Below, piece by piece: positions 1 to 31,918 of a stretch of DNA of 64,000 nt. The notes under the pieces are model-generated. The model worked only from the letters and a program-made list of their open reading frames with translations, had not been told where the DNA came from and ran no database searches. The stretch lies in IMG/VR virus record IMGVR_UViG_3300006213_000002, positions 1 through 64,000 of that record. The stretch is one strand, 5' to 3'. Numbering within the stretch: the stretch's first letter is position 1; every line of letters starts with the position of its first letter. Origin of the DNA: an uncultured virus (IMG/VR IMGVR_UViG_3300006213_000002). Lineage: Duplodnaviria > Heunggongvirae > Uroviricota > Caudoviricetes. Made by a program: the position numbers and the translations under genes.

Positions 1-108
1 ACTATGAGTATGATTAGTTTTACTATATACACTATCATGATTATGTGTAGTTAATGAATAATTACTATGAGTATGATTAGTTTTACTATATACACTATCA
101 TGGTTATG
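1..108. repeat. 63-bp coding tandem repeat (21-aa unit SNYSLTTHNHDSVYSKTNHTH)
   Basis: actatgagtatgattagttttactatatacactatcatg occurs at 1 and at 64; same unit in the copies near 20872 and 40283. Confidence 0.9.
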
Positions 109-189
109 GTTAATATTTGCTTTATTTTTTAATTCATTCTTTGTTAATCTTATTAATTCTTTTATACCATTATCCTTTAATTGTTTCAT
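1..189 (-). CDS. MKQLKDNG-family His-repeat protein, copy 1 (5' part; runs off the window edge; not in the ORF track)
   Basis: ATG at 189 with GGAGG RBS; translates MKQLKDNGIKELIRLTKNELKNKANINHNHDSVYSKTNHTHSNYSLTTHNHDSVYSKTNHTHS; nearly identical in DNA to 20872..21060. Confidence 0.85.
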   Translation of the reverse strand, partial: MKQLKDNGIKELIRLTKNELKNKANINHNHDSVYSKTNHTHSNYSLTTHNHDSVYSKTNHTHS

Positions 190-209
190 ATTATTATACC
201 TCCAATATA

Positions 210-252
210 CTAAATAATTACTATATTTATAATAAATATAGTAATTATTTAG
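210..252. repeat. Perfect inverted repeat (21-bp arms) upstream of His-repeat gene copy 1
   Basis: ctaaataattactatatttat-a-ataaatatagtaattatttag. Confidence 0.9.
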
Positions 253-262
253 ATTTATAATT

Positions 263-284
263 TATAGGGAATAAAATCCCTATA
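263..284. terminator. Intrinsic terminator-like hairpin
   Basis: tataggga-ataaaa-tccctata followed by a T run. Confidence 0.55.
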
Positions 285-15022: not shown

Positions 15023-18000
15023 AATAATTAAAAAGGATGGTACATTAGAAGATTTTGATAACAATAAGATTATTAATGCAGTAACTAAATCAGCAGGTAG
15101 AATGATGATTCAATTATCAGATGATGATTTTAATAATATCATTAATAAAATTATTTCTAAAATAGAAGATTTTGAAATGTCTGATATTAAAGTAGATGAT
15201 ATGCATTCATTTGTAGAAGCCACATTAGAGGAGTTTAATCCTATTATAGCAAAATCTTATAGAGATTATAGAAATTATAAAAAAGATTTTGTACATATGA
15301 TGGATAAAGTATATGAACGATCACAAGCTATACGATATATAGGTGATAGAGAAAATGGTAATACAGATTCTGCATTAGTGGCAACAAAAAGATCATTAAT
15401 TTATAATGAATTAAATAGAAGACTATATAAACAATTCTTCATGACTGTAGAAGAAAGACAAGCATGTAGAGATGGCTATATTTATATACATGACCAATGT
15501 TCACGACTTGACAGCCTAAACTGCTGTCTATTCCGTATGGATAATGTAATGAAAGATGGATTTGAGATGGGTAATGTTTGGTATAATGAACCTAAAACAT
15601 TGGATACTGCATTTGATGTTATGGGTGACATTATATTATCAGCAGCATCGCAACAATATGGTGGGTTTACAGTTCCAGAAGTAGATAAATTATTATCATA
15701 TTACGCAGAGAAATCATATAATGTATATTATAATGAACACAAATCCAATTTAGAAGAATTTATTATGAACAACGATGTTCTTCATAATAAATGTGATGAA
15801 TATGCAATGAAGAAAGTTAGACGGGAATATGAACAAGGATTTCAAGGTATTGAAATGAAATTAAATACTGTAGGAAGTAGTAGAGGAGATTATCCTTTTA
15901 TTACTATGACATTTGGATTAGCTACTGATAAATTTGGTAAGATGGCTTCAGAAGTATTTTTAGATGTTCATATGAAAGGTCAAGGAAAGAAAGGATTTAA
16001 ACGCCCAGTATTATTTCCTAAATTGGTATTTTTATATGATAAAAATTTACATGGAGAAGGAAAAGAATTAGAAGATTTATTTAATAAAAGTATTGAATGT
16101 TCATCATCAACCATGTATCCAGATTATCTTTCATTAACTGGAGATGGATATGTTCCTTCTATGTATAAAAAGTATGGTAAAGTAATCAGTCCTATGGGAT
16201 GTGTTCAAAAAGATGAACTTGTAACATATAAATTCAATGGAAATTTATATGTTGAGAGTATAGGAAGGATGTGGAATAGAATTAAGTGTGCATTTCCACA
16301 AAAAATACAAATTGAAGGACAACCTCATTTGTATATTGATGTAGATCCAAATTTAGTTCAAATATATGATAAAGAAAAAGGTTTTGTAAAAACTAAAAGA
16401 ATGGTAAAAAATAGGAGTAATAATTGGGCTAGAGTTACATTATCAAATGGAAGAATATTAGAATGCACATTAGATCATCCGTTACCTGTAATAGGAAAGG
16501 GTCGAACATTTGTATCAAATTTACAAATAGGTGATAAAATTCCATTGAATAAGACTCAATATGTTGAAGAAACATATAATGGAACTAATATTGATTATGC
16601 ATGGATGCTAGGAATAATATTATGTGATGGATGTTATGATGATCAACTAAATGTTACAATTAATTCTTATGGAGAAGATGAAATTGTTAATGCTTTAGCT
16701 CCAATTATGCAAAAATATTATAATCTTGAAATGATTATAAATGAGCAGAAAAGGGGTAAAAAAGGAAATTATTTAGAGTTGAAATTTCCTCATTCTAGTC
16801 ATGTATGTAGAGATATGATTCATATATTTGAAGGATTACAAAAAGTGCATAGACACATACCTAATTTTATATTTAATTCAAGTAAAGAAGTTAGATTAGC
16901 ATTTTTAGCTGGAATGATTGATGCAGATGGGTATATTAATGATAATAATCATGTATCTACAATTCAGCTTGGATCTACTAATAAAGAATTAGCTTTACAA
17001 CAAATGGCTCTTATGCAATCATTAGGGATTAGATCAAATATTTATTCTAATAAATATAATAAAGTATTTCCGAACAAAATAAGGTATAAAGTTGAAGGAG
17101 AAGCTATAAGTGAATTAGTAAAGTATATAAAATGTAAAAAGAAAATTGAACATTTCAATGAGAATGTTCGTACTAATATTTCTAAATCTGATTTAGATGA
17201 AGGAGTGGTAACAAAGATAGAAATATTATATAACAGAATTGATTGGAGTTATGACGTTACAACAGAATCCGATTATTTTGATATTTCTGGAATATATTCT
17301 CATAATTGTCGAGCATTTTTATCACCTTGGTATGAAAAAGGTGGCATAGAACAAGAGAATGAAGATGACCAACCAGTATTTCTCGGTAGATTTAATATAG
17401 GAGCTGTATCATTACATCTTCCTATGATATATATGAAATCTAAAAAGGAGAATAAGGATTTTTATGAAATATTAGATTATTATCTTGAAATGATTAGACA
17501 GCTGCATATTCGTACATATGCATATCTTGGAGAAATGAGAGCATCTACTAATCCATTAGGATTTTGTGAAGGTGGATTCTTAGGTGGCAATCTTAAACCT
17601 AATGACAAGATTAAACCTTTATTAAAGGCTATGACAGCTTCTTTTGGTATTACTGCATTTAATGAATTGCAAGAACTTTATAATGGAAAATCTATTAGAG
17701 AAGATGGGATGTTTGCATTAGATGTATTAAAATATATAAATAATAAAGTTAATGAGTTTAAAAAAGAAGACAATAATCTATATGCAATTTATGGTACTCC
17801 TGGAGAAAACCTTTGTAGTTTACAAGTTAAACAATTTAGACAAATATATGGCATAATAGAAAATGTTTCTGATAGACCGTATGTGAGTAATTCATTTCAT
17901 TGTCATGTAACTGAGGATGTTACTCCTATAGAAAAACAGAATATTGAAAATAAATATTGGAATTATTGTAATGGAGGAAAAATACAATATGTAAAATATC

Positions 18001-18266
18001 CAATTGATTATAATATAAAAGCAATAAAAACATTGGTAAAGAGAGCAATGGAAATGGGTTATTATGAAGGTGTGAATCTATCACTTGCATATTGTGAAGA
18101 ATGTGGACATACAGAATTGGAAATGGATGTATGTCCAAAATGTGGAACAAGAAATATATGTAAAGTAGATAGAATGAATGGATATTTAGCATATAGCAGG
18201 GTACATGGGAGTAGCAGACTTAGTGATGGTAAAATGGCTGAAATAGCTGATAGAGTAAGTATGTAA
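15015..18266 (+). CDS. nrdD: Class III (anaerobic) ribonucleoside-triphosphate reductase with ATP cone and intein
   Basis: ATP-cone start IIKKDG; YIHD, NCCLF, QQYGG; spliced PMG-CRAFL; CEECG..CPKCG; glycyl-radical RMNGYL. Confidence 0.95.
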   Translation: MYRIIKKDGTLEDFDNNKIINAVTKSAGRMMIQLSDDDFNNIINKIISKIEDFEMSDIKVDDMHSFVEATLEEFNPIIAKSYRDYRNYKKDFVHMMDKVYERSQAIRYIGDRENGNTDSALVATKRSLIYNELNRRLYKQFFMTVEERQACRDGYIYIHDQCSRLDSLNCCLFRMDNVMKDGFEMGNVWYNEPKTLDTAFDVMGDIILSAASQQYGGFTVPEVDKLLSYYAEKSYNVYYNEHKSNLEEFIMNNDVLHNKCDEYAMKKVRREYEQGFQGIEMKLNTVGSSRGDYPFITMTFGLATDKFGKMASEVFLDVHMKGQGKKGFKRPVLFPKLVFLYDKNLHGEGKELEDLFNKSIECSSSTMYPDYLSLTGDGYVPSMYKKYGKVISPMGCVQKDELVTYKFNGNLYVESIGRMWNRIKCAFPQKIQIEGQPHLYIDVDPNLVQIYDKEKGFVKTKRMVKNRSNNWARVTLSNGRILECTLDHPLPVIGKGRTFVSNLQIGDKIPLNKTQYVEETYNGTNIDYAWMLGIILCDGCYDDQLNVTINSYGEDEIVNALAPIMQKYYNLEMIINEQKRGKKGNYLELKFPHSSHVCRDMIHIFEGLQKVHRHIPNFIFNSSKEVRLAFLAGMIDADGYINDNNHVSTIQLGSTNKELALQQMALMQSLGIRSNIYSNKYNKVFPNKIRYKVEGEAISELVKYIKCKKKIEHFNENVRTNISKSDLDEGVVTKIEILYNRIDWSYDVTTESDYFDISGIYSHNCRAFLSPWYEKGGIEQENEDDQPVFLGRFNIGAVSLHLPMIYMKSKKENKDFYEILDYYLEMIRQLHIRTYAYLGEMRASTNPLGFCEGGFLGGNLKPNDKIKPLLKAMTASFGITAFNELQELYNGKSIREDGMFALDVLKYINNKVNEFKKEDNNLYAIYGTPGENLCSLQVKQFRQIYGIIENVSDRPYVSNSFHCHVTEDVTPIEKQNIENKYWNYCNGGKIQYVKYPIDYNIKAIKTLVKRAMEMGYYEGVNLSLAYCEECGHTELEMDVCPKCGTRNICKVDRMNGYLAYSRVHGSSRLSDGKMAEIADRVSM
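16200..17306 (+). mobile_element. Intein with LAGLIDADG homing endonuclease (369 aa) in NrdD
   Basis: Begins CVQKD after SPMG; block B CTLDHP; LGIILCDG and FLAGMIDADG; ends YSHN before Cys. Confidence 0.93.
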
Positions 18267-19211: not shown

Positions 19212-19667
19212 ATGATTAAGATTGATATTAAGTATTTTTCAAACGATATTGACAAAATAACAAAAATTGAAAAAGGTAATTGGATTGATTTGAGAGCAGC
19301 AGAAACAATTGAATTGAAACAAGGTGATCATAAATTAATACCATTGGGTATTGGAATGATATTACCAGTAGGATTTGAAGCTCATATAGTACCTCGTAGT
19401 TCAACATTTAAAAGATATGGAATTATACAGACTAATCATATAGGTGTTATTGATGGTCCTGATAGAGAAACTGGCATAGGTGGTTATTGCGGTAATAATG
19501 ATCAATGGTTTATGTCTGTATATGCTACCAGAGATACTGTTATCAATAAAAATGACAGAATATGCCAATTTAGAATAATAGAACAACAACCTACAATAGA
19601 ATTTATTGAAGTGGATAATCTTGGAGATGTAAATAGAGGTGGATTTGGTACTACTGGTGTAAATTAA
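19212..19667 (+). CDS. dut: Trimeric dUTPase
   Basis: WIDLRA, PRSS, GVID..YCG, RICQFRI, RGGFGTTG. Confidence 0.92.
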   Translation: MIKIDIKYFSNDIDKITKIEKGNWIDLRAAETIELKQGDHKLIPLGIGMILPVGFEAHIVPRSSTFKRYGIIQTNHIGVIDGPDRETGIGGYCGNNDQWFMSVYATRDTVINKNDRICQFRIIEQQPTIEFIEVDNLGDVNRGGFGTTGVN

Positions 19668-19799: not shown

Positions 19800-20156
19800 A
19801 TGAATGCAATTACAGAGGTAAGTTTCAAAGTATCGGAAAACTGTGAATTGGAAGATGTTGTAGGAATTATTTCTATAAGAGATAATATTAGATCAAGAAG
19901 GATTGGAGCTAATCTTTCCACATCTTTCGAAATCATGCCTAAATCATTACACAATGATATTGCAGAATCATTAGACAATAATTTTGCAGGTGGGTGTACA
20001 TTTAAGCTGAAATGTATTGAAACTGGTAAGATTATTGATAGTGATGATTGTGTAGCTAATATCACATTACGATCAGGTGATAAAGTTCAGATTCAAGTAG
20101 CATGGAATGAAGTGGATGGTATTGCTACCGATTGGTTGAATGTGAGTATTTTCTAA
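19800..20156 (+). CDS. Hypothetical protein (probably early)
   Basis: 118 aa; AGGAGG RBS; promoter-like motif at 19743..19761. Confidence 0.7.
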   Translation: MNAITEVSFKVSENCELEDVVGIISIRDNIRSRRIGANLSTSFEIMPKSLHNDIAESLDNNFAGGCTFKLKCIETGKIIDSDDCVANITLRSGDKVQIQVAWNEVDGIATDWLNVSIF

Positions 20157-20170
20157 GAAGGAATAAAGAA

Positions 20171-20302
20171 ATGAAAAGAGAAGATTATGTACCATCAAAG
20201 GAACTTCAGGATATCATTAAAAGATCGTTAGAGGATGAGATTATGTTTAGACAAAATATCCAAACATTTAATAATTATATCGAATGTCTAATGAATCAGT
20301 AA
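20171..20302 (+). CDS. 43-aa hypothetical protein
   Basis: AAGGA RBS; MKREDYVPSKELQDIIKRSLEDEIMFRQNIQTFNNYIECLMNQ; terminator at 20324..20345. Confidence 0.5.
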   Translation: MKREDYVPSKELQDIIKRSLEDEIMFRQNIQTFNNYIECLMNQ

Positions 20303-20400
20303 AATTACAACTAAATATTGAGAAAGGGTGATTATAATCACCCTTATTTTTTTATAATATTATCTATTATAAAATAAAATATTGAAGAAAACGTTAAAAA

Positions 20401-21060
20401 TTAATAATTTCCTTTAAAATGTTCAATATAATCATTTACATCATAAATAACTTCTATACTAGTTTTATATTTATTTAAAAATTTTACATGAATATTTATT
20501 ATGCTATGATTTGTATGAATTAATTGAGTATGATAATCATATAAATTCCCTTCTCTACATATATCTATATTTATAAAAGCAAATTCTGTATTGAAAGTTA
20601 CAGTACTTTCAAGATTTATTCCATTTGTTTTTGTTAATATTGGTTTTATAGGATGAATACTATCAGTACTACTTGGATAATTTATAAAATTAGTATTTAT
20701 AGTTTCAATAATTTCATAATTAAAATTTCTAAATTCAATATTATACATTAAATAGTCATCATAAAATTCATCAACACTATAAAAGAATTTAAATAATACA
20801 GATTTTATATTATGATTATTTATATTAACTGATAAATATTTATCGTCGTGATTATGAGATGATGCTGCATAACTATGAGTATGATTAGTTTTACTATATA
20901 CACTATCATGATTATGTGTAGTTAATGAATAATTACTATGAGTATGATTAGTTTTACTATATGCATTATCATGGTTATGATTAATATTAGCTTTATTTTT
21001 TAATTCATTTTTTACTAATCTTATTAATTCTTTTATACCATTATCCTTTAATTGTTTCAT
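20401..21060 (-). CDS. MKQLKDNG-family His-repeat protein, copy 2 (219 aa)
   Basis: Constant N-terminus, five HxH repeats, then a unique C-terminal domain. Confidence 0.8.
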   Translation of the reverse strand: MKQLKDNGIKELIRLVKNELKNKANINHNHDNAYSKTNHTHSNYSLTTHNHDSVYSKTNHTHSYAASSHNHDDKYLSVNINNHNIKSVLFKFFYSVDEFYDDYLMYNIEFRNFNYEIIETINTNFINYPSSTDSIHPIKPILTKTNGINLESTVTFNTEFAFINIDICREGNLYDYHTQLIHTNHSIINIHVKFLNKYKTSIEVIYDVNDYIEHFKGNY

Positions 21061-21090
21061 ATATTTATTACCTCTTTTCTATGTATTTAT

Positions 21091-21122
21091 CTATACTAAT
21101 TTTATAAATAAAATTAGTATAG
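21091..21122. repeat. Perfect inverted repeat (15-bp arms) upstream of copy 2
   Basis: ctatactaattttat-aa-ataaaattagtatag. Confidence 0.9.
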
Positions 21123-21273
21123 CTTAAAGGTTATAATAAATATATAAATACAATGAAATAAATTAATTAAAGATCTCCTATTATAGGAGATCTTTATTTT
21201 TTACTTATATATTTTAATATTATCTAAATAACAAATTATTTAGTTATCATTAAATTTTAAGGAGGAATAAAAT

Positions 21274-21459
21274 ATGAAGGTGCGTTTTTTAAACAGGGAT
21301 ATTGAAGTTACTAAAAGTAGGATTAATATTTGTAATTTTAAAGGTGAAAAAATTCTGATAGGAAGGAGTTTTAACAAAAAAGAAATGAATATTAAAAGTT
21401 ATAAAATTTTAATATTAATGATATTTATGCCATATGATTATTTAAATAAAAGATTATAA
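21274..21459 (+). CDS. Small hypothetical protein
   Basis: 61 aa; AAGGAGG RBS. Confidence 0.5.
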   Translation: MKVRFLNRDIEVTKSRINICNFKGEKILIGRSFNKKEMNIKSYKILILMIFMPYDYLNKRL

Positions 21460-21475
21460 AAGGAGGATCATAATT

Positions 21476-22621
21476 TTGAGAGAAAAATTTAATTTAATAC
21501 AGGAGCTTCGTGGAAAAAATGAAGAACTTGTAGGAACTAATCGATTAGCTTTAGTTGGTCAAGGTGATTTCGTAGGTGCCAATAATGTAACACGTGGTGC
21601 TATGAATATTAAACATAAGACTCAACATTTAGCAATTGATAATCCAGAATTCCCATTCTTTTATGATGGTAAAGAAAATGTAATGGGTGAAAATTCATCT
21701 TTCTATTTCAAGACTGATAAAAATTATGAGGTCGTAGATATAGTAAAGAAATATAATGAATTTTTAAAAGGTAGAACAAAAATAGCATTATATTTTCTAT
21801 ATTGTAGAGATGATGATTCATATAAGTTGGTAGAACGCCAAGAATGTGAGAACCTAACAGAGAATTTTGGATTTGATTATGTAAATGATACATTGGATAG
21901 TTTAGAAGTAGGAGATAAAATACCAAAAAATACATTATTGAAAAGATCTACATCATATGATGAAAATGGTAATGTTGGTGTTGGATTAAATGGTAGAATA
22001 TTAAATGCAATACATCCTGCAGTACAAGATGATGCCATTATAGTATCTGAATCATTTGCTAAACGTGCTGTCATTAATAATATTATTACAGTTACTATTC
22101 CCATTAATAATGATACCATGTTGTTAAATTTACATGGTAAAGATGGAAAATATATAGGATTACCAGATATAGGTATGAAAGTAACAGAAGGTGTAATAGC
22201 AGCTACACGTCCTATAAAAGAAACACGCATGTTTTCAGATTTGCGTGATGCATCATTAAATACATATAATATTCATACAGATCAAGTGTATTATGCAGAT
22301 GGTGAAATTATTGATATTAATGTATATTGCAATAATCCAAATCAAAAAATAAATAAGGTTAATAGACAATTAATGCAATATTATTATGATTGTCGGTGGT
22401 TTTTTACTGAAGTCTATAAAGTATGTAAAAGAATATTAAAGACAGGAGCATCTAAAATAGATAAAGAAATTAATAATTGGATGAGAATGGCTATTGATTA
22501 TTTGGATACAAATGCAATATGGGATTTCGGTAATGATAATAATTCAAATATGATGGTAGAATTATTAGTAAGACGTAAAGAGCCCATTAAAGTAGGCAGA
22601 AAAATAGTTGGTAGAGCGGGG
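21476..22621 (+). CDS. RNA polymerase beta-like subunit (C-terminal-half type, probably non-virion RNAP), 5' exon only
   Basis: ANNVTRGAM (equivalent to DDANRALM), GLN..QDDAIIVSES, GEIIDINVY; ends at KVGRKIVGRAG, where the GDK..GRHG-NKG motif is cut by intron sequence. Confidence 0.85.
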
Positions 22622-23105
22622 ACGTATATAATCATTTTATAAATTAAACATGGTTTAGCCTCGGGTAAACTATATTAATTGCGGGAAAGACTTGTATAAG
22701 TCATTATTACTAAACTATTTATAGAAATATAGTAGTGGTCTAGAGTAATTAACTAGAGTATAGTAAAAAGATAATGAATTGGACAATCCGCATTTTTATT
22801 TTATAATAATAAAGAAACCAATTATTTGATATCTAAAGAAATATATAAAAGTATTAAACTCAAACGATCGAAAAAAATAGATTCAATGATATCGAATAAT
22901 AGACATAAATATAGAAATATTATAAATGAAATTCAACGACCATCGAAAGATAATAACTCAGAAGAAATAATAATAGAAGAAACAATTTTATTTGGATATG
23001 AGTTAGAATCGAATAGAGTAGATGTATTATTTAATCGAAGTGAAAAGGATAATAATTTATCATGATATGGTCTATATTTTATTGAATAAATAAAATTATT
23101 TAAAG
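22622..23105 (+). mobile_element. Group I intron-like element, apparently chimeric or split (5' boundary approximate)
   Basis: P aattgcgggaaag 22677, Q aatccgca 22785, R ttcaacgaccat 22932, S gatatggtct 23064, terminal G at 23105; the P3 strands do not pair. Confidence 0.75.
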
Positions 23106-24461
23106 GATGCAAATGTAGGTATTAATAAAAATTTAGTAGTAGAACCAACACTAGCTAATAGTAGAGGTTATAGAGAACAAGTAGATGATGTTGAAACATT
23201 AAAAGATGTAAATTTATTTTCTCCTGTAGAATTATTAACTCCAGGAACTATATGTGTAGATGATCCAATTCGTTCTGCTATTGCTGCTAAACAATCAGCC
23301 CATGTTGTACCAGTGAACGATTCAATTCCATCATTAGTTTCAAATGGTTTCGACGAGGCAGTTCAGTTTTATTTATCATCTGATTTTGTTATTAATGCAG
23401 ATGAGGATGGTAAAGTAATTGATGTAAATGATGAATTGGGATTTATTATGGTTGAATACAAATCTGGAAAGAAACGTGCTATAAATACAAATCCTGATAT
23501 AGTACGTAATTTAGCAGGTGGATTTAATCTTGCTAATAAATTAACTCCAGTGTATACTAAAGTAGGTCAAAAATTTAAAAAAGATGAACCATTAGCATAC
23601 CATCCAAAATATTTCCAATATTCTCCTATTAATGGATTACGATATTCATTTGGTCCATTAGCAAAAGTAGCTTTTATGTCTACATATAATACATATGAAG
23701 ATGCAGGATTGACACATGAAAGTTTTTCTGATAGAATGGCAACAGATATTGTTTATCAAGAAAAAGGTATGTTTAAACGTAATAACAATATTTTGAGTAT
23801 GGTTAAAATAGGTGATCATGTTGCTATAGGAGATCCATTAATAAAGTTTGATGTATCTGTAGAAGACGATATATTATCTTCATACTTAGTACATTTATCT
23901 GATGAAAATGCAGAATTATTAGCTAATGAGACTAAATCAGAAATTAAATCATCACATGCAGGAAAAGTAATAGATATAAAAGTATATAGTATATTAGATC
24001 CATCTAACTTGTCTCCTTCTTTAGCTAATATAGTACAAGCATATTTTGATAAAGGAAATATGAAAAAAGAATATTTGGAACAATTTGATGGTACTCCAGG
24101 TATTATAAAAGCTGGCTATATGGTTACTGATACTACCGAGCCAATTAAGAATAGATATAATAGTATTAAAGGAAATAAGGGGGTAGATGTTTTAATAGAA
24201 ATTTATATAGAACATAAAGATGTGATGGGTGTAGGTGATAAGGTTGCATTATATGCAGCTAATAAACAAATTATTTCTGAAGTTATTCCTGAAGGATTTG
24301 AACCATATTCAGAAATAGAACCAGATGAGCCTATAGATTTATTTACAAGCCCTGGAACAATTGCGAGGAGAATGACTCCAAGTGTAGAACCTATATCTGC
24401 CGCATGCAAAGTACTAGTATATCTAAAAAGAAAAATAAAAAAAGAAATCAAATATTCATAA
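23106..24461 (+). CDS. RNA polymerase beta-like subunit (probably virion RNAP), 3' exon only
   Basis: Frame is open from 23094 with no RBS or start; DANVGINKNL (PNIGLINSL equivalent), DDPIRSAIA, AFMSTYNTYEDA, GKVIDIKVY, GVGDKVALYAANKQ, PIDLFTSPGTIARRM. Confidence 0.85.
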   Translation, partial: DANVGINKNLVVEPTLANSRGYREQVDDVETLKDVNLFSPVELLTPGTICVDDPIRSAIAAKQSAHVVPVNDSIPSLVSNGFDEAVQFYLSSDFVINADEDGKVIDVNDELGFIMVEYKSGKKRAINTNPDIVRNLAGGFNLANKLTPVYTKVGQKFKKDEPLAYHPKYFQYSPINGLRYSFGPLAKVAFMSTYNTYEDAGLTHESFSDRMATDIVYQEKGMFKRNNNILSMVKIGDHVAIGDPLIKFDVSVEDDILSSYLVHLSDENAELLANETKSEIKSSHAGKVIDIKVYSILDPSNLSPSLANIVQAYFDKGNMKKEYLEQFDGTPGIIKAGYMVTDTTEPIKNRYNSIKGNKGVDVLIEIYIEHKDVMGVGDKVALYAANKQIISEVIPEGFEPYSEIEPDEPIDLFTSPGTIARRMTPSVEPISAACKVLVYLKRKIKKEIKYS

Positions 24462-24468
24462 TATTATA

Positions 24469-24499
24469 AACAATAGTCCGGAAATTTCGGACTATTGTT
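24469..24499 (+). terminator. Hairpin after the beta exon
   Basis: aacaatagtccgg-aaatt-tcggactattgtt. Confidence 0.65.
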
Positions 24500-24645
24500 A
24501 CTAAAAGATATGCTAAATATGAAATAACGACAATTGATAATAAAACTCATTTCTATCATAATGATGAGAAAGTTTTATTAATACCTGGAATATAAAAATA
24601 TAACCATGATGAAATAATTAATTTACATGGGCTACAATAAAAAAT

Positions 24646-24672
24646 AAAGGAGTGGTTTATTTCCACTCCTTT
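24646..24672 (-). terminator. Terminator for the beta-prime gene
   Basis: aaaggagtgg-tttattt-ccactccttt flanked by A and T runs. Confidence 0.75.
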
Positions 24673-24691
24673 ATTTTTATTTTTTTGGCTC

Positions 24692-24858
24692 TTAATTATC
24701 TGAAAGGATCGCTATAGAAATGTTTTCTAACGCGCTAAGATCTAATCGAATCGATTGATCCACCCTATTTATGAGCATATTAATAGGACTAAATCCTTCA
24801 AATAATTCCCAAAGCTCTTCGAGTGGTAATCCTAATTCATTCAAAACATCTCCGTCAA
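24692..24858 (-). CDS. RNAP beta-prime-like subunit, exon 4 (not in the ORF track)
   Basis: TT GAC GGA GAT GTT TTG AAT = (F)DGDVLNELGLPLEELWELFEGFSPINMLINR... to TAA; completes NADFDGD in frame. Confidence 0.88.
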
Positions 24859-24913
24859 TTTTTTATTAATTTCTCCACAATTAATTAGTTTTATTAAAAA
24901 GTTTTTTAGTATA

Positions 24914-24925
24914 AACAATGATGTA
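24914..24925 (+). promoter_or_regulatory. Candidate late promoter for the GIY-YIG gene
   Basis: AACA-ATGATG-TA, followed by AGGAGG RBS and ATG at 24955. Confidence 0.5.
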
Positions 24926-24954
24926 ACAAAATAATATTATAGGAGGAATAACTT

Positions 24955-25809
24955 ATGTTAACTACTAATGAACTTTTAAACAATAAAAACACCATTTCTA
25001 ATTTTTTAATTAATCGACCAATACCAGAAAAATATCGATTGACAGTTGATAAGATTCCTTTTGGTTATATCTACTGCATTGAGAATAAATTAACAGGTAT
25101 GAAATACATAGGTTCTACATACTCAGTATGGGCCGGTATACAAAAGCCAAGACCTTATACTTCATTATCAAAACGAGCTTCACATTATTTATATGAATAT
25201 AACAAAGCTATGAAATCTATTACAGCTGGTAACAAAGTTACATATAGACCTATTATACAAGCTATGATAGATAATGGTTTTGATAATTTTATTATGTATC
25301 CTATTTGTGAAACTACTCCTGCTAGTCATACTGGAATGGAAAATTATTTCATAGATATTTATGATACTATTAAAAGTGGCTATAATGTTTCTAGAGCTGG
25401 TGTACCAACTGCAACTGGTCGAGTATTAACTGCTAGAGATAAGCAGATTAGATCAGAAGGTATTATAGCTGTTAATATGAATGATAAAAAACTTGTAGTA
25501 TCTGAATCCATGAAATTATTAGGTGACTATATTGGTACTACTAAAGATCAAATTAAAAATGGTAATCGTAATGGTAAACCAGTAAAAGGTTGGTTTATAT
25601 TTTATTTAAATCCAGATAAACGACATGAAATATTATTTAAGAATGTAATCCATGATCAAAATAAGCGTAAACAAGAACGTCATTCTGATAAAGCAAAATC
25701 ATTTTATATAGGACTATATAATGCAATAGAATTACATCTAAATGAAACATATCATAGTGAATATTTTCCTGGTTTTGAAAGATTACCTAATCTGATATAT
25801 ACTGATTAA
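24955..25809 (+). CDS. GIY-YIG homing endonuclease, antisense within intron 3
   Basis: GYIYCIEN..KYIGST, KRASHY, ENYFI..GYN; C-terminal helical DNA-binding-like region. Confidence 0.85.
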   Translation: MLTTNELLNNKNTISNFLINRPIPEKYRLTVDKIPFGYIYCIENKLTGMKYIGSTYSVWAGIQKPRPYTSLSKRASHYLYEYNKAMKSITAGNKVTYRPIIQAMIDNGFDNFIMYPICETTPASHTGMENYFIDIYDTIKSGYNVSRAGVPTATGRVLTARDKQIRSEGIIAVNMNDKKLVVSESMKLLGDYIGTTKDQIKNGNRNGKPVKGWFIFYLNPDKRHEILFKNVIHDQNKRKQERHSDKAKSFYIGLYNAIELHLNETYHSEYFPGFERLPNLIYTD

Positions 25810-25983
25810 TTATGGAATTATTAATAACATAGACCATATCTTTAGAGGAATATATATGCTACTATATATTCCTCTACTTCTGTTTAGATTTAAGGGGTGC
25901 CAATCCCACTTATTTTTCAATAAGCCCTACTCTACTAACTATATACATCATATTCATTATAGTTATTTCGATGGTCGTTGAAC

Positions 25984-26343
25984 TCATGTGCGTTTTAATG
26001 TGTCTGGAAAACATTTTGGACACAAAGATATTTTCAATTCAAACTCTGCAGGTTTTGCCTGAAATTTAGTACCACATGGTTTATGTCTGTATTGTACTAT
26101 ACATTTAGGAGTATATAGTTTATAGTCTGATAATAACTCATACTCTTCTGCATGTGGAATCTTTTTCAATTCTCTTAAATACATTTCCTTTGTGATACGT
26201 TGTTTTGGTTTGTTAGCTAATGTTGGTCTGTTTCCAGATGCATCCAATTCTATGAATGCTTGTTGTTTCTCAGCTAATTTCTTTTTACGTGCAATCTTTT
26301 TTAATCCTCTTTCTGATGGGATTAAACTACGTGGTATAGGCAT
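25984..26343 (-). CDS. Intron-encoded basic Zn-ribbon protein (homing-endonuclease DNA-binding module, no nuclease motif seen)
   Basis: AAGGAGG RBS; YELLSDY..HKPCG..F..CPKC. Confidence 0.65.
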   Translation of the reverse strand: MPIPRSLIPSERGLKKIARKKKLAEKQQAFIELDASGNRPTLANKPKQRITKEMYLRELKKIPHAEEYELLSDYKLYTPKCIVQYRHKPCGTKFQAKPAEFELKISLCPKCFPDTLKRT

Positions 26344-26568
26344 ATTATATTACCTCCTTTCTATACTATTATAGAATATATATTTAAATTGAAAATATTT
26401 TAAACGTACACTTTGCTGCGTCGATTGTATCTAATTAATACCTTTTTACTATACCTTGAGATATTGCCTCTTGCCATTATTATATTACTATAATAATTTA
26501 GTAGTATTAATATTAACGATAGTTTCCCGCAATTAAAATAATTTAAGCAGACCTCGACAGGCATGTTA

Positions 26569-26581
26569 AGTCTGCATTTAG
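26569..26581 (-). CDS. RNAP beta-prime-like subunit, 13-nt micro-exon 3 (L-N-A-D plus first base of F)
   Basis: CTAAATGCAGACT between the terminal G of intron 2 (26582) and the P1 U-G site of intron 3. Confidence 0.88.
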
Positions 26582-27696
26582 CGTATTATTCATATACTAT
26601 TATATTAGTATATCGAGCTTTTAACTCTGCCCTATATCTCTATAGGATACTAGACTATATCTTCAATTAATATAATATTAATTGCCATTCATTTCCATAA
26701 TTTATTTATGTACTCTACTAATTACATATTGTAACTTTGGATAGTCGTTGAAGCTAGTAATTTTATTTTTCTATCAATTCGTTTAACCATTTCAAAATTT
26801 TTATTATTTAAATCTAAATTAAGTATATCTAATATTTCAGCTTTATCATAACCTGCTAAAAGAAGTTCTTCAACATATAATTTCATATCTTTAGGATATT
26901 TTTCTTCTGGTATGTTATATAATTTTGATATATGTTTCCATCTTCTACCTTTCTTTATATCAGTTATATATTTTCTTTCAACACCAGTTAATTCTGAAAT
27001 TATATTATTAGGAGTTCTTTGTTCTAGGAGTTTACATACTTCATGGATTTGTTTATCTGTATAATGACTTAAACTATTAGATGATCCAACTATAGCTGTT
27101 TTTAGTCCAGTCCTAAATGCATGCAATATATTTTCAGATGTAGTAGACCATTCTAAGTTTAAATCTACATTAATATACTTTTTACCATTAATATGATTTA
27201 CTTCTGGTTTATTATCAGGATTAGGAATAAAAGCTGTAGCAACAAACCTATGTATTCCTGGATGATATTGGCTACCATTAGGTCTAACTATAGTTGAATG
27301 TAAATATCCGTCTTTATCCATATATTTAGATAAAATCTTTTTAGTTATAGCATTTCTTACATCACCTATATTAGATACTTCATAATTAGTTTTCATACCA
27401 TCAATTATGATTGGTTTCCATTCGAGATTAACTAAATAGATATAATCTCCTATTTCAAAAATATTCATATAAATATCCTCCTGTATATCATATTTATATG
27501 AATAATATATAATTACTTTACCTGCGGATTGACTATATATCTTTAACCTTTTTACTATACCTTCCACATTACTGGTTGCCACTACTATATCACTATAATA
27601 GTTTAGTAGTTAAAGCTCTTAAGCATCCATATATTATATAGATAGAATTTAGGCAATTCTCTTTCCCGCATAATTGAATGAATAGGCCGCCTTTTG
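26582..27696 (-). mobile_element. Group I intron 2 of the beta-prime gene (1115 nt) with HNH endonuclease
   Basis: Exon AGGU pairs with IGS GCCU; P tatgcgggaaag, Q aatccgcagg, R ttcaacgactat, S aagatatagtct; P3 cattc/gaatg; terminal G. Confidence 0.9.
26722..27468 (-). CDS. NUMOD4-HNH homing endonuclease (I-HmuI-like); probable start at 27468
   Basis: EWKPI, YEVSNIGDVR, HRFVATAFIPNP, VNHINGKK..N..NLEWST..EN; AGGAGG before MNIFEIG. Confidence 0.9.
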   Translation of the reverse strand: MNIFEIGDYIYLVNLEWKPIIIDGMKTNYEVSNIGDVRNAITKKILSKYMDKDGYLHSTIVRPNGSQYHPGIHRFVATAFIPNPDNKPEVNHINGKKYINVDLNLEWSTTSENILHAFRTGLKTAIVGSSNSLSHYTDKQIHEVCKLLEQRTPNNIISELTGVERKYITDIKKGRRWKHISKLYNIPEEKYPKDMKLYVEELLLAGYDKAEILDILNLDLNNKNFEMVKRIDRKIKLLASTTIQSYNM

Positions 27697-28245
27697 ACCT
27701 GGCAGGATTGCTGATGGTATTGCTAAACTATAATCATCAGAATCTTTCTTTACCTTTCTAATTCGCATCAAAAGAATACTTCCAAATGTTATTGTAGGAT
27801 TACGATTAATTATAATTTGCGGAGCATCTTCTTTTATAACTCTACACATTATATCATATACATATGGATCGAAATTAAATTTTGATGCTAAAAAGTTTTG
27901 TGCTCTTGTTATTGTCCATCCTTTATCTTTTATAATTCTACGTAAAATGTTACCTTTATATATTTCAATAAATTGTTTATATGGTACATCTACTTCATCC
28001 ATCTTTAAAGATGAATCTAATACAATTACGCTTCTTGATGAGTAATTAAACTCGCCACCAAGAACATTTGCCCTAGTCCAACCATGCTTTCCATCAATTA
28101 ATGAGAAATTTATCTGCCATAATTCATTTGCTCTCATTTGAGCTTGATATAAATAAAGAGGTACTTCTATAGCAGTTGCTTTCTTCAAATTAATTGATAT
28201 ATGAGTTAAAGGATGAATATTTTTATCAAGTGGTGAGAAATAATA
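27697..28245 (-). CDS. RNAP beta-prime-like subunit, exon 2
   Basis: KHGWTRANVLGGEFNYSSRSVI (GKRVDYSGRSVI equivalent), IIINRNPTI (NRAPTL equivalent); ends SAILPG. Confidence 0.9.
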
Positions 28246-28539
28246 CAATTATCTTATCTTTATATCTCTATAAACGTTGAGACTATATCTTTATAGAATC
28301 TATTATAGTAATCTATATCTTTCGTTTCCATTATATATGTACTATACTCATATCATTATTGATATTTTCTATAGTCGTTGAACTATATTCACACAGCTAC
28401 TGATTATCCCAAACTTATTTGATTTTACTATCCTATATCCATTACGATATATGCTAACTTATATTATTACTAATATAATGCAGTTAAATAAGATAAAAGG
28501 AACTTCCAGTAATTATGAAAGAAAGAGCTATTATTTTCA
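28246..28539 (-). mobile_element. Group I intron 1 of the beta-prime gene (294 nt, no ORF)
   Basis: Exon AGAGU pairs with IGS GCUCU; P10 AAAUAAUA with exon UAUUAUUU; P aattactgg, Q tcagtagc, R gttcaacgacta, S aagatatagtct; terminal G at 28246; restores TTES-YYFSP. Confidence 0.9.
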
Positions 28540-29193
28540 ACTCTCAGTTGTTATCCCCTGTGGTCTTAATACAGTAGAATATACAGGTAATTTAGAAGTC
28601 CATACTAAATCTTTATCCTGTATTAATGAATCTATTAATTCTGCTTTCTGTTTTCTTTTACCTTTATAATAGGTCATAATCTCTTCATAATTTTCATAGA
28701 ATTCTTGTAAACCTAAATTATGATATTTCAACATAGATTTCTTAACTTCTATATCATCATTCTTATGTCTAATAATACCAGCGGATGTAATGATGTTTTC
28801 ATTAGAGATTATATTCTCTAAAACTTTAGTAGATAAAGCAGACTTTAACCGGAAGAAAAAAAGCGGATTGATTATTTTAAACGGAGAAAAATTGAGCCAC
28901 CCTGTATATAGAATATCTACATCACGATGTTCTACAGGCTCTCCACAAAATATACATTTTTCACCTTCAAACTCAGCTCCTATAGTTCTTCCGCATTTAC
29001 AACGATATCTATCCATGAATTCATTAGCATCACCATATGTAGTTCCATATCTAGGTGATCTAGGTCCATTCATATTTCGAATAGTTTTATCAACATCAGA
29101 GAATGGTATATCTGAAATTAAAAATCCTCTGTTATTAATAATATCATTATAACATTCTGCCTCTAGATTCATCTTTTTAAATGAAATTCTCAT
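28540..29193 (-). CDS. RNAP beta-prime-like (N-terminal-half, catalytic) subunit, exon 1; spliced product 460 aa
   Basis: GPRSPRYG, Zn finger YRCKCG..CIFCG, GWLNF, LPVYSTVLRP; exons 654+549+13+167 = 1383 nt, in frame. Confidence 0.9.
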
Positions 29194-29213
29194 TTAATAT
29201 AAAATCCTCCTTT

Positions 29214-29753
29214 TTATTTAAATATTTTATTTAAAATTACTATTATAATTCTAATTAGTAGAATAATAGCAAATAATAAATAACCAATTTGAAACATAAA
29301 TGAAAATACTTTTTCAAGAATTATCTTAAATGTATTTAAATTCGGATAATCAATACATGCATAATTTACTAATATTGACATAAAATATGATTCCATTGAT
29401 ATTATTAAAAAGATAAATGATAATTTTGACATTGGGTGTTTTAAAAACTTATCAATGAAATATGTTAATATTGTGCCTGAAAAAGATATTGGTAATAATA
29501 ACGATATTGTTTTAAAGATATTATGATCAACCCCGAACATAATATTAGCAATTAATAAAGAAAATATACTAACTAATATAAATTCTTTCCATCTTATATA
29601 TTTCATAATATCAACAATATCGTCTATTATTATAGTAAACCTATTATTTTCTTTTTTATTCTTTATTTTCAATTTTTTAAATCTCCTTTCAATAAATAAT
29701 GATATTGGGAGTAAATTACTCCCAATATCATTTATCTTATATTTTACATTCAA
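29214..29753 (-). CDS. Membrane protein (about 4 TM segments)
   Basis: Multiple hydrophobic stretches. Confidence 0.6.
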   Translation of the reverse strand: MNVKYKINDIGSNLLPISLFIERRFKKLKIKNKKENNRFTIIIDDIVDIMKYIRWKEFILVSIFSLLIANIMFGVDHNIFKTISLLLPISFSGTILTYFIDKFLKHPMSKLSFIFLIISMESYFMSILVNYACIDYPNLNTFKIILEKVFSFMFQIGYLLFAIILLIRIIIVILNKIFK

Positions 29754-29940
29754 TTATAGAATTATCATTCTTATTAATGAATATCAGATAATGTGTCTTA
29801 ATTGTATCACGTGATAAAGAACCACCTCTGTATTGTTCAGTCTTTGATTTCAGATACAAATAATCATCTGGATTATATCCATTAATATTTAATATGTTTC
29901 TTTGTGATCTTGTAGGTTTTGTTCCTCTATATCTTGACAC
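29737..29940 (-). CDS. Small basic phage protein (DUF6906-like)
   Basis: GTKPTRSQRNIL..GYNPDDYLYLK; GTG start with AGGAGG. Confidence 0.55.
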   Translation of the reverse strand: MSRYRGTKPTRSQRNILNINGYNPDDYLYLKSKTEQYRGGSLSRDTIKTHYLIFINKNDNSIIECKI

Positions 29941-29958
29941 TTATTTTTTCCTCCTATG

Positions 29959-30594
29959 TTAAATGTATATTGAAAAGCATAATTTTATTATAGCAGCATC
30001 CCATAATGAATTATGTTTAAGAATTTTGCCATCTTCTCTTTTTAGAATAGATGGTACAAGATCTTCCAGTTGGCAACATACATGTTCTTTAGCAAATTCT
30101 TCACGTGAATAATCAGCATCTTCATATTTACTTTTGAACTGCAATAATGTTGATAAATCCATCGGTATATAATAGATTTCATCTGGCAAATTAATAGCTA
30201 AACCATCTTTACATAATAATTTATTCATTAACATCCAATCATATGCATAACAATCTGAACAAAATTGTACTTTATCAGCAGATGTTATTATTAATTGGCT
30301 ATGAATCCATTTCATTAATATATCTGCTATTTCTGTTGATGATCCTTTCATTTGTATTGATGTATTTATCTTATCAGGATAATCATTTGTAAATATAAAT
30401 TTACTATCATTAATAAATAAAAGGTTATCAATTACATGTTTCTCAATCCATTCATCAATTTGTTCCTTATCATAGTCTATGAACTCTGCATAAAAGTATG
30501 CTCCTGTTTCGCTAACTATACCTAAACTGATTAATGTTGTTTCTGAATGTAATCCAGTAAATTCAGTATCAAAATATAATTTACAAAGTTTCAT
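29959..30594 (-). CDS. DEDDh 3'-5' exonuclease (RNase AS/DUF5051-like)
   Basis: YFDTEFTG, LISLGIV, AYDW, HNSLWDA. Confidence 0.85.
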   Translation of the reverse strand: MKLCKLYFDTEFTGLHSETTLISLGIVSETGAYFYAEFIDYDKEQIDEWIEKHVIDNLLFINDSKFIFTNDYPDKINTSIQMKGSSTEIADILMKWIHSQLIITSADKVQFCSDCYAYDWMLMNKLLCKDGLAINLPDEIYYIPMDLSTLLQFKSKYEDADYSREEFAKEHVCCQLEDLVPSILKREDGKILKHNSLWDAAIIKLCFSIYI

Positions 30595-30612
30595 ATTACA
30601 TAACTCCTTTCA

Positions 30613-31531
30613 TTATGCTACAGAATCAAATTCGTTTGCTGTTTCTAGAGTAATATTTGTATTAGACAATACTAAGAAATCTAACATTTGATCTATCAAC
30701 TCTCTCTTGTTGATTGTGATTTCTTGATCCAATAATCCTTGCTCTTCATATAATACAAATTTATATTTACTATTAGCAAATGTAATCAAGAATTTCTTTA
30801 TGATATCTTCTTTGATATCTACAATGGTACTATAAAACTTTTCTGTTATAAGTTTATAGGTTTCATTATCTTTTAAATATTTAATATCTTTCATATACAT
30901 TTTTTCTCCTACAGGAGTTTCTTCTATGTTAGATGTTAATATCAAAGATAATGTAGAATCCAATAGAGTATCTTTTGTTACGTTGAATCTTCTCATGATA
31001 TCTTTACGCATTATCAATAATAATGTATACCAATCAAGATTACGTAATAATGCAAATTCTGCAGATGATCTAGTATAATTAAAGAAATAAATTTCTATCA
31101 TTAACTGATGTAACCTGCTAGGTTTCATATTACGTCTATAATACTCTAATTCTTCTGTAGTAATTTCATTTGCATATTTCTGGTATAGATTCTTTACTAA
31201 GTTCTTCATATCCATAGAACATGTGATTACATATTCTTCATTCATCTTCATCTTATTTGCTCTATATCTATCATTCTTACTATTACCCTCTGCATCAGGA
31301 ATAATACTGGTTTCGATGAGATTTCTTCTAAAGACTTGGATGATGAAGATACTAATATGTGTGTTAACAATTGATGCAAGAAAACTTAAAACTCTTTCAC
31401 GAGGCTGTTCTTTTACACTATCCCATGTCTGACATATTTGAAACTTAATAAAGTTATCTATAATGACATTTCTTGTCATCAATTGATTGATAATAATTGA
31501 TATATCTTTTCCTTCGATCTCTTGTTGTTCG
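30613..31531 (-). CDS. Exon 2 of an intron-split 574-aa protein (candidate nvRNAP promoter-specificity subunit)
   Basis: C GAA CAA CAA after the terminal G at 31532; joins exon 1 as KSI-F-EQQEIEG; 806+919 = 1725 nt, in frame. Confidence 0.8.
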
Positions 31532-31918
31532 CAGTTATCTTAACTCTACATCTCTATAGACGCTGTGACTATATCATTATAGTATTTATTATATTACCTA
31601 TATTATGAGCTTCCATTACATATGTACTCTACTAACTATATTTGATATACGTATTTCTCGTATATCATAGCTTTTCGATAGTCGATGAACTTTTATCTAT
31701 ATAATAGATACTTAACTACCTATGATCTTCTCTACTAATATGATTTTACCATCCGATAGTCGTTATACTATCTGCTAACTTATATTATTACTAATATAAT
31801 GCGGTTATATTAGACTAACAAGAAGTTCCGGTAATCCACATAATTTATCCATCTCTAAACTCTTTCAAATATTAACTATTCTTTTGATAAGTTAATCTTG
31901 AAAGTATAAATTGATTTC
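31532..31918 (-). mobile_element. Group I intron (387 nt, no ORF)
   Basis: Exon CAUCUU pairs with IGS GAGAUG via U-G; P attaccgg, Q ggtag, R gttcatcgacta, S gatatagtc; P3 ttatg/cataa. Confidence 0.85.

Follow-up and report, generated by a model that had tools for sequence, protein, structure and literature searches.

Does a jumbo phage keep the exons of its RNA polymerase genes at separate loci and join them by an unusual route? The question is raised by a stretch of 64,000 nucleotides, positions 1 to 64,000 of a virus record (hereafter the window), in which a group I-like intron is flanked by exons of two different RNA polymerase (RNAP) beta genes. The initial annotation of this locus proposed that the mRNAs depend on trans-splicing or on a DNA rearrangement that can be reversed, expected the reciprocal hybrid at another locus, and named misassembly between similar introns as the alternative. 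The phage comes from mouse-gut metagenomes and is a relative of the AR9/PBS1-like phages, which encode two RNA polymerases. A real hybrid would be the first example of phage RNA polymerase genes that undergo trans-splicing or a programmed rearrangement. We judge that it is not real, and that the hybrid intron is very probably an artefact of repeat-induced metagenome misassembly.

Exons of two RNA polymerase beta genes flank the intron

The upstream exon (21476..22622, + strand) belongs to the gene for the C-terminal subunit of the non-virion RNAP beta (beta-C), where it opens with a TTG start. It aligns to residues 8–376 of the 665 residues of AR9 gp089, the corresponding subunit of that phage (E = 8e-47), and matches positions 24–402 of the 698 positions of PHROG 3295. 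The open frame spans 21476..22642 and the exon sequence stops at ...VGRKIVGRAG, its last base being the A of a split AAT (Asn) codon at 22622. The initial annotation also had the exon stop at GRAG, but its end at 22621 is corrected by one nucleotide to include this base.

The downstream exon (23106..24461, + strand) is the final exon of the gene for the large virion RNAP beta subunit (aa 1058–1507 and the stop codon), as seen from its alignment to residues 972–1418 of the virion beta (1418 aa) that Staphylococcus phage SA1 encodes (E = 8e-68) and its match to positions 952–1389 of the 1393 positions of PHROG 14872. A second match of this exon, to positions 323–441 of PHROG 3295, overlaps the range covered by the upstream exon. 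Thus, the two exons encode portions of the beta fold that overlap and stem from two paralogs, as first proposed, rather than being collinear parts of one protein. The downstream exon is also without a start, in-frame ATG, GTG and TTG all being absent before 23313, and the partners that had been reported missing from the window are missing from the whole 135-kb record as well: tblastn with AR9 gp089 and the SA1 virion beta, at E values up to 50, returned only the two known exons and noise, a search of the record with PF00562 found only the two window exons, and one with PF04560 gave zero matches.

The intervening element is a hybrid of two introns

The element between the exons combines the 5′ part of one group I-like intron with the 3′ part of a second. 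This arrangement, already suspected in the initial annotation, is borne out by a three-way alignment with the introns of a second record of the same phage (G001, described below): up to 22779 the window follows intron A, which interrupts the beta-C gene, and from 22699 onward it follows intron B, which interrupts the virion beta gene. Window positions 22623–22779 are identical to G001 273884–274040 in intron A, and 22699–23105 to G001 138977–139383 in intron B. The intron A-specific 5′ part (22623..22698, + strand) differs from the 5′ part of intron B, and contains a G at 22658, the guide CCTCG (22659–22663), the P3 5′ strand CTATATT (22670–22676) and the P element AATTGCGGGAA (22677–22687). 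It is followed by the crossover zone, a block of 81 nt (22699..22779, + strand) that is 100% identical in introns A and B and represents the longest substring that the two G001 introns have in common (273960–274040 and 138977–139057); an exact run of 63 nt is also shared with a third copy (G001 7237–7299, minus strand). The intron B-specific 3′ part (22780..23105, + strand) carries the Q element CAATCCGCA (22784–22792, then an AT run), the R element TTCAACGAC (22932–22940) with the P7 strand GACCAT (22938–22943), and the S element GATATGGTC (23064–23072) with the P7′ strand ATGGTC (23067–23072). It ends in a terminal G at 23105, so that P, Q, R, S and the terminal G are all present as described at the outset; the last base of the preceding exon is A, not U. 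An open reading frame of 79 aa within the intron B 3′ part (22826–23065) overlaps the R element, has no Pfam or PHROG match and is probably not a gene.

The P3 strands of the element had been reported not to pair. Indeed, ctatat pairs neither with gaaaag at 23044, the 3′ strand first suggested, nor with CGAAAG (22944–22949), which would be the more likely 3′ strand because it lies directly after P7, as in eight other members of the intron family. For the combination in the window, the 5′ strand of intron A with the 3′ strand of intron B, the duplex energy is +0.3 kcal/mol, compared with −2.3 for the two strands of intron B; with AU-rich strands these energies are all weak, and they agree with misassembly rather than being strong evidence by themselves. 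The element as it stands therefore does not qualify as a functional cis-splicing intron, its P3 strands being unpaired and its exons coming from two paralogs.

Both beta genes are intact in the complete genome

The record from which the window derives (G000) is 135,234 bp long and has a completeness rating of 50%. By self-BLAST, its first 266 bp, which form the record start at window positions 1..266 (no strand assigned) and were also placed by mapping onto G001, are identical to its last 266 bp, which marks the contig as a walk through the assembly graph that returns to its own start. The same segment is a perfect inverted copy of 70595–70860, a region of the record beyond the window. G001 represents the same phage with 289,059 bp, terminal repeats and a completeness rating of 100%, its identity with G000 being 99.9–100%. 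Two relatives are of nearly the same length (292,119 and 289,234 bp), each likewise rated 100% complete. Megablast places G000 1–22779 on G001 251310–274040 and G000 22667–135234 on G001 138947–251575, with 10 mismatches in total and two tandem-repeat length differences across the 135 kb. From this two-part mapping it follows that G000 is the G001 interval between both intron copies, closed on itself.

Within G001, both beta genes lie in cis, each with whole introns of its own, and a reciprocal hybrid intron is absent. Exon 1 of the virion beta gene (135753–138923; 1057 aa) ends with ...ITTSA and is followed by the 460-nt intron B and then by an exon (139384–140739) identical to the downstream exon of the window. 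The beta-C gene begins with an exon 100% identical to the upstream exon of the window (272737–273883), and continues with the 767-nt intron A, exon 2 (from 274651, starting at NK), a second intron and exon 3. Intron-less alleles confirm both exon joins: the beta-C gene of the relative G002 is uninterrupted (785 aa) and reads GRHGNKTVV across the intron A site, and four of the six loci compared (L008–L011) read through the virion-beta intron site as ...STS[A/P]D[A/G]NVG... (SPNANVG in L010), with the virion beta of L011 uninterrupted over aa 4–1507. Both genes are in cis in two complete relatives (G002 and G003) as well. The spacing from beta-C to virion beta is 133,180 bp in G003 and 133,353 bp in G001, and the number of beta-C introns ranges from none in G002 to at least one in G003, at the same site as in G001, and two in G001.

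These genomes bear directly on the proposal that the normal genome has both beta genes broken, with a reciprocal hybrid elsewhere, and that expression depends on trans-splicing of group I halves or on a reversible DNA rearrangement. This is what the G000 record, read by itself and with the partner exons absent from it, would suggest; however, that record is rated as only half complete, and G001, which carries all four exon and intron pieces at 100% identity to the window, has both genes intact in cis over its complete 289 kb, with no reciprocal hybrid junction. The initial annotation had itself listed intact copies of both beta genes elsewhere as an observation that would speak against its proposal. 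In addition, the two complete relatives have both genes in cis, and the hybrid in the window cannot form P3. Whereas a trans-spliced split intron would have no intact cis copy and would lie beside cognate exons, intact cis copies are found in G001, G002 and G003. We consider the proposal hardly credible.

Features of introns A and B

The introns belong to a family with at least 12 copies in G001, several of them in RNAP genes. For P4, the P segment TTGCGGG (22680–22686) and the Q segment CCGCA (22788–22792) are complementary over TGCGG/CCGCA, and we take the P and Q elements of these introns to match the classical P/Q consensus; the Q element of intron A (GATCCGCAGC) is fuller than that of intron B. 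For P7, the R and S hexamers are complementary in all 12 family copies, ten of which have GACTAT/ATAGTC, whereas intron B and the copy at G001 142260 (minus strand) have GACCAT/ATGGTC, a compensatory change on both sides. A terminal G is found in all three introns of the two genes: intron B ends as ...TTTAAAG/GAT, giving ...ITTSA/DANVG as in L008–L011, intron A as ...ATAATG/AT, giving GRAG-N-KTVV as in the GRHGNKTVV of G002, and the second beta-C intron as ...ATAATTG/AT, giving GE-Y-ETPN.

P1 can be formed by each intron with its own exon. It comprises UCGGCU/GGCCGA with a U-G pair in intron B, and GUGAAU/GUUCAC, also with U-G, in the second beta-C intron. In intron A it is CGGGG/CCTCG, where the last exon base, A, is opposite G and no U-G pair is present; the homolog of intron A in G003 has CATGGG/CCCATG and likewise places A opposite G, and the compensatory change between the two supports the P1 of intron A. 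The missing P1 U-G pair and the AT-rich break after CCGCA, both of which had been pointed out as irregularities of the element, are properties of the two genuine introns and not of their fusion. Intron A is predicted to be spliced after the A at 22622, joining ...GGGGA to AUAAAACU..., and its P3 3′ strand is tentatively assigned to AATAT, approximately 14 nt downstream of P7 rather than directly after it. We note that intron A is without the usual U before the 5′ splice site. An alternative splice (exon ...ACGU, intron end ...UUAAG) would restore U at −1 and is in frame in both G001 and G003; this choice was rejected, as it adds three residues that are absent from the intron-less G002 allele and offers no P1 pairing.

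The Rfam group I model (RF00028, Intron_gpI) gave no match at the gathering score anywhere in the window, and at E values up to 10 it had no match in window positions 20000–30000 or at the G001 loci with intact introns A and B; long AT-rich insertions may be the reason. The Rfam hits that were listed all scored below their gathering thresholds and look like chance. In blastn comparisons with annotated phages, intron A returned only short matches covering 4–20% of the query, one of which falls under an entry of Staphylococcus phage Quidividi named "intron-containing Mre11 / HNH homing endonuclease" and hints only weakly at a relationship to known phage introns. None of the 18 phage-bearing public runs is recorded as RNA. 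Overall, the biology of the phage is ordinary for its group: each gene carries an intron of its own in cis and is presumably cis-spliced.

Origin of the hybrid junction

How could the two introns have become joined? The real phage genome is about 289 kb in size and contains a multi-copy family of group I-like introns, with intron A in the non-virion beta-C gene and intron B in the virion beta gene, which lies 135 kb upstream. An assembler would have entered the 81-nt identical block from intron A and exited into intron B, so that the 135 kb between the intron copies would have been closed into a false circle, the record that contains the window. The breakpoint lies inside the 81-nt exact repeat and G001 is collinear with G000 on both sides, and we infer that software produced the join, which would then not be present in DNA. 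The misassembly that was at first only an alternative thus finds support in G001, the 81-nt repeat, the relatives and the sequencing depths.

A different origin for the same structure would be homologous recombination at the 81-nt blocks, yielding a 135-kb subgenomic circle, or the deletion that corresponds to it, in the form of a minority or dead-end molecule abundant enough in one sample to be assembled. Excision between two direct repeats would give exactly the structure of G000, and on this point the sequence alone cannot separate software from cell. Moreover, the 81-nt identity within otherwise divergent introns and the 63-nt run in the third copy show that sequence has been exchanged in the past, and there is a precedent in phage T4, where recombination between intron cores reportedly gave rise to hybrid introns and deletions (work attributed to Bryk and Belfort in 1990). 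Such a molecule, however, would be without virion-beta exon 1, beta-C exons 2–3 and 154 kb of the genome, and could not propagate alone, and both ends of the record fall within another repeat, as they typically do in graph-walk artefacts.

The depths of contigs in four public runs speak to both origins. Only Logan contigs were used, which break at any repeat of at least 31 nt and cannot phase the 81-nt block; in all four runs they break inside the block, where the depth is 2–4 times that of the flanks, and no contig crosses from 22728 to 22764 in either the hybrid or the intact arrangement, so that the hybrid junction is bridged by none of them. In two of the runs, X2 and X15, the 5′ flank of intron B itself runs into the block, within contigs 5748 and 4069 nt long, respectively. 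The depths of these contigs (24.3 in X2 and 25.7 in X15) are similar to those of the intron A 5′ arm (22.1 and 24.4) and the intron B 3′ arm (26.2 and 22.3); the arms found only in the intact arrangement are therefore as deep as those shared with G000, and the excess expected of an additional 135-kb molecule is not seen. The last shared unitig in X2 has a depth of 49.2, compared with 26.2 for the B-type exit, and the gap of about 23 indicates another exit that is not in the window, as expected for the 3′ half of intron A; the corresponding depths in a third run, X1, are 1200 and 746. No unitig with the 3′ flank of intron A itself was present among the compared contigs of the four runs, which a 95% likeness filter may explain, and it is the depth balance that points to its presence. 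The shared pieces in X2, at 1.6–2.7 times the flanks, follow the G001 copy numbers of 2, 3 and 2, whereas G000 has one copy of each. Together, the depth balance in X2 and X15 favours the intact arrangement.

Run X1, a possible source sample, fits less closely in another respect. Its block depths of 3.2, 3.9, 3.1 and 1.9 times the flanks, set against G001 copy numbers of 2, 3, 2 and 1, exceed these by about one copy; G001 does not fully explain them, which is a point in favour of a real recombinant. A scan for exact copies of the 81-nt block, from which the genome records of the window itself were possibly excluded, found two matches in viral contigs, both in G001, and zero in metagenome contigs, and thus no further assembly that would speak for or against the hybrid. 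Taking both sides into account, we regard it as quite improbable that the join exists in DNA, and as very doubtful that the hybrid junction reflects ectopic recombination between intron copies in which the 81-nt block loops out a 135-kb subgenomic circle. Were the loop-out true, the spread of introns would be a source of large-scale genome instability, a T4-like shuffling at fifty times the scale.

With misassembly as the preferred reading, the consequences are practical. Exact blocks shared among the copies of an intron cause metagenome assemblers to link loci that are far apart, and a metagenomic phage record that shows exons of two genes around one intron should first be compared with alternative assemblies of that genome. 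As a half-genome closed in error, the public 135-kb record is unfit as a reference for this phage, for which the 289-kb record is preferable.

Comparison with known systems

For Staphylococcus jumbo phages, a preprint describes virion and non-virion RNAP genes that are interrupted in cis by at least one intron, some with homing endonuclease ORFs, at positions that vary between relatives (10.1101/2020.12.14.422802). The beta-C annotation of phage Machias consists of six joined pieces. The phage studied here resembles the AR9/PBS1-like and MarsHill-like jumbo phages in having cis introns in both virion and non-virion RNAP genes that vary between relatives, but differs in being a mouse-gut phage with only 26–36% protein identity to them, in introns that are missed by the Rfam group I model, and in the A at the 5′ splice site of intron A.

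Trans-spliced group I introns of organelles have their halves at separate loci, each beside its cognate exon, with no intact cis copy known. By contrast, the halves in the window flank non-cognate exons, and intact cis copies are present in the complete genome. The structure also resembles the intron recombinants of T4 td, nrdB and sunY that Bryk and Belfort are said to have isolated as DNA in 1990, with hybrid introns that still spliced: there, too, exons of two different genes enclose a hybrid intron, and the crossover falls within a core block that both parent introns share. However, the hybrid described here is known from an assembled record alone, would delete 154 kb including parts of essential genes, and has non-complementary P3 strands.

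The record is also like the chimeric or falsely circular contigs that repeats induce in short-read (de Bruijn graph) metagenome assembly. As in such chimeras, the breakpoint of the 135-kb record lies in an 81-nt exact repeat, the record spans the interval between direct copies, its identical 266-bp ends lie in another repeat, and G001, which was assembled independently, takes another path through the repeat and has the genes intact. The mechanism in our record is one that we infer; structurally, we find no difference between this record and a de Bruijn repeat chimera.

Two paralogous RNAP beta exons flank a hybrid intron

The hybrid element (window 22623-23105) lies between two open frames on the plus strand. 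The first (21476..22642, TTG start) corresponds to the 5' part of the gene for the non-virion RNAP beta C-terminal subunit (beta-C), whose exon 1 (21476..22622) encodes a protein ending in ...VGRKIVGRAG; it aligns with AR9 gp089 over aa 8-376 of 665 (E 8e-47) and matches positions 24-402 of 698 of PHROG 3295. The second frame is open from 23094, with its first ATG, GTG or TTG not before 23313, and covers the 3'-terminal part of the gene for the large virion RNAP beta subunit (last exon, 23106..24461), aligning with aa 972-1418 of the 1418-aa virion beta of Staphylococcus phage SA1 (E 8e-68) and with positions 952-1389 of 1393 of PHROG 14872. A further match of this frame, to PHROG 3295 positions 323-441, lies within the range covered by the first, so the exons are overlapping parts of two paralogs and not collinear in one protein, as the initial annotation had proposed from the sequence. 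The same annotation had found the missing parts of both genes absent from the window, and a search of the whole 135-kb record (G000) revealed no coding sequence for them elsewhere either. The 483 nt between the exons do contain P, Q, R, S and a terminal G where it had placed them.

The breakpoint falls within a block common to two introns

G000, of which the window forms the first 64 kb, comprises 135,234 bp with a completeness rating of 50%, and its first 266 bases are identical to its last 266, both ends lying in a repeat family that recurs within the record. Using the exon-2 protein as a query against viral contigs, we obtained a 100% identical match in G001, a 289,059-bp record of the same phage with terminal repeats and a completeness rating of 100%. 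Megablast places G000 on G001 in four collinear pieces (1-2288 on 251310-253597, 2289-22779 on 253550-274040, 22667-40370 on 138947-156648 and 40283-135234 on 156624-251575), with a total of 10 mismatches and two tandem-repeat length differences. This collinearity indicates that G000 consists of G001 from ~138.9 to 274.0 kb with its two ends joined, and the joining point falls within the hybrid element. The tandem repeats are 48 bp longer in G000 at window 2241-2336 and 63 bp longer in G001 at 40283-40370, owing either to variation between strains or to a repeat collapsed in one of the assemblies.

In three-way alignment and exact comparison, the window from 21476 to 22779 is the same as G001 272737-274040, comprising beta-C exon 1 and the start of the beta-C intron (intron A), and from 22699 to 24461 it is the same as G001 138977-140739, comprising the end of the virion-beta intron (intron B) and the virion-beta exon. 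The positions common to both matches (22699-22779) form an 81-nt block with 100% identity between introns A (767 nt) and B (460 nt). Outside the block the two introns diverge: the 5' flanks resemble each other without being the same, whereas the 3' halves have unrelated lengths and mostly unrelated sequences. A third intron copy (G001 7237-7299, minus strand) shares a 63-nt exact run with the block (G001 138977-139057 and 273960-274040). Such mosaic identity among otherwise divergent copies suggests past sequence exchange, possibly by gene conversion.

Both genes are intact in G001. Upstream of intron B, a 1064-aa open frame (ATG at 135753, ending ...GKIAITTSA) aligns with SA1 virion beta aa 327-970, and joining it to the window exon gives ...ITTSA followed by DANVGINKNL. 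Among six related loci compared, four (L008-L011) are uninterrupted at this join and read ...STS(A/P)D(A/G)NVG, or SPNANVG in L010; L011 has no interruption over aa 4-1507, and L007 carries an intron at the site of intron B. Downstream of intron A, G001 contains a beta-C exon beginning ...(N)KTVVSAIWPDEWMPY, after which come another intron and exon 3. Of two relatives rated complete, G002 (292 kb) encodes its 785-aa beta-C without interruption and reads GRHGNKTVV, and in G003 (289 kb) an intron occupies the intron A site with both exons in cis. The distance from virion beta to beta-C is 133,180 bp in G003 (same strand) vs 133,353 bp in G001. In G002 (L008, L039) it is ~240 kb (or 52 kb), vs 133 kb in G001 and G003, reflecting a true rearrangement or else a further assembly fault caused by repeats.

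With the breakpoint in an exact block and both genes intact in G001, the hybrid intron is very probably a repeat-induced misassembly, which the initial annotation had held as its alternative. Its leading proposal, that trans-splicing or programmed rearrangement is the normal state of these genes, is effectively refuted by the intact copies.

Pairings within the intron family

A single intron family is present in G001 in at least 12 copies, and the P7 hexamers are complementary in 12 of 12, with GACCAT/ATGGTC in two copies, including intron B, vs GACTAT/ATAGTC, a change on both sides. The exon joins place a G as the last base of intron A, intron B and the second beta-C intron. Each P1 forms with its own exon, intron B through UCGGCU/GGCCGA with the U-G present, and intron A through CGGGG/CCTCG in G001, for which G003 has CATGGG/CCCATG with compensatory changes. 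The Rfam group I model detected neither the intact introns nor the hybrid; the group I assignment therefore rests on the pairings and on the P/Q/R/S elements, which we take to match the classical consensus.

P3 was compared in eight copies between the strand just before AATTGCGGG and the strand just after P7. TTTTG pairs with CGAAA in intron B, whereas in the hybrid element CTATATT of intron A faces CGAAAG of intron B without pairing. The duplex energies (+0.3 kcal/mol for the hybrid vs -2.3 kcal/mol for B with B) are weak, and so agree with misassembly but do not carry it. Among the oddities first remarked upon in the hybrid, the P3 mismatch holds as a mark of a false join, but the AT run after CCGCA is native to intron B and the missing U-G to intron A, where the last exon base in both G001 and G003 is an A, opposite the G that would usually pair with U (window 22617-22622 and 22658-22663; G001 273878-273883; G003 locus L040, minus strand ~1480-1500). 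If intron A splices, this would be an unusual 5' splice site.

Public runs fit the intact genome

The stretch occurs in 18 public runs of gut samples (mouse and others), each available as Logan contigs, and four of these runs (X1, X2, X7, X15) were examined. In all four, the 31-mer contigs end within the block and none spans it, as expected for 31-mers. In X2 and X15, contigs measuring 5748 and 4069 nt, respectively, connect the 5' flank of intron B itself to the block, and the depths of these contigs (24.3 and 25.7), the A-5' arm (22.1 and 24.4) and the B-3' arm (26.2 and 22.3) are equal. The last shared unitig in X2 has a depth of 49.2 and the B-type exit 26.2, so ~23 must leave by an exit absent from the window; X1 is similar (1200 vs 746). 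No unitig was placed for the 3' flank of intron A in the four runs, its presence being read from this depth balance only. Depths of the shared pieces in X2 track the G001 copy numbers of 2, 3 and 2, where G000 has one copy each; block depths in X1, however, lie ~1 copy above the G001 numbers, an excess that G001 does not explain.

A real recombinant DNA form carrying the hybrid junction, excised through the two 81-nt direct repeats, would be indistinguishable in sequence from a false path taken through an assembly graph. Overall the runs fit the intact genome with no excess of the 135-kb part, although a minority recombinant could go unseen in them; we consider such a form improbable. Scans of viral and metagenome contigs gave no further assemblies with the exact block. 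X1 and X7 contain a further intron variant, absent from G001 and G000, that follows the block and 13 nt of intron B before diverging (window 22750-22792, loose end 22792), such that these samples hold either more intron copies or a related phage.

Neighbouring features

Three more introns of the family lie at window 25800-28536 (minus strand) beside RNAP beta-prime-like exons (27649-28248 and 28537-29193, PHROG 2987), one of them between the two exons with its R element near 28380. An HNH/NUMOD4 endonuclease ORF (26722-27582) and a short HNH-like ORF (25984-26343) each reside within one of these introns, and the two ORF-bearing introns seem to adjoin, separated by no more than a tiny exon. Shortly after the virion beta stop codon is a free-standing GIY-YIG homing-endonuclease-like ORF (24955-25809; PHROG 5123, E 2e-8), with a diverged copy at record 67409-68005 (68% DNA identity).

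A module repeated at least five times (window 1-266, 20835-21119 and 40178-40421; record 70595-70942 and 134884-135234) encodes the N-terminus of histidine/asparagine-rich proteins, such as that of ORF 20401-21060 (minus strand), which has no PHROG match. One pair of copies forms a perfect 266-bp inverted repeat in which the G000 ends fall, and the 103-bp terminal repeat of G001 belongs to the same module family. By eye, ORF 15015-18266 looks like an anaerobic ribonucleotide reductase with an intein carrying an endonuclease domain. The dUTPase match at 19212-19667 (PHROG 135, E 1e-27) is of note in a phage related to AR9 and PBS1, which are uracil-DNA phages.

Comparison with known jumbo phages

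The underlying biology, namely in-cis mobile introns in RNAP subunit genes, is already described in jumbo phages of the AR9-like and MarsHill-like groups. For these two-polymerase phages, 10.1101/2020.12.14.422802 describes RNAP genes with introns at positions that vary between relatives, and PMC12908238 treats homing and group I introns in phages.
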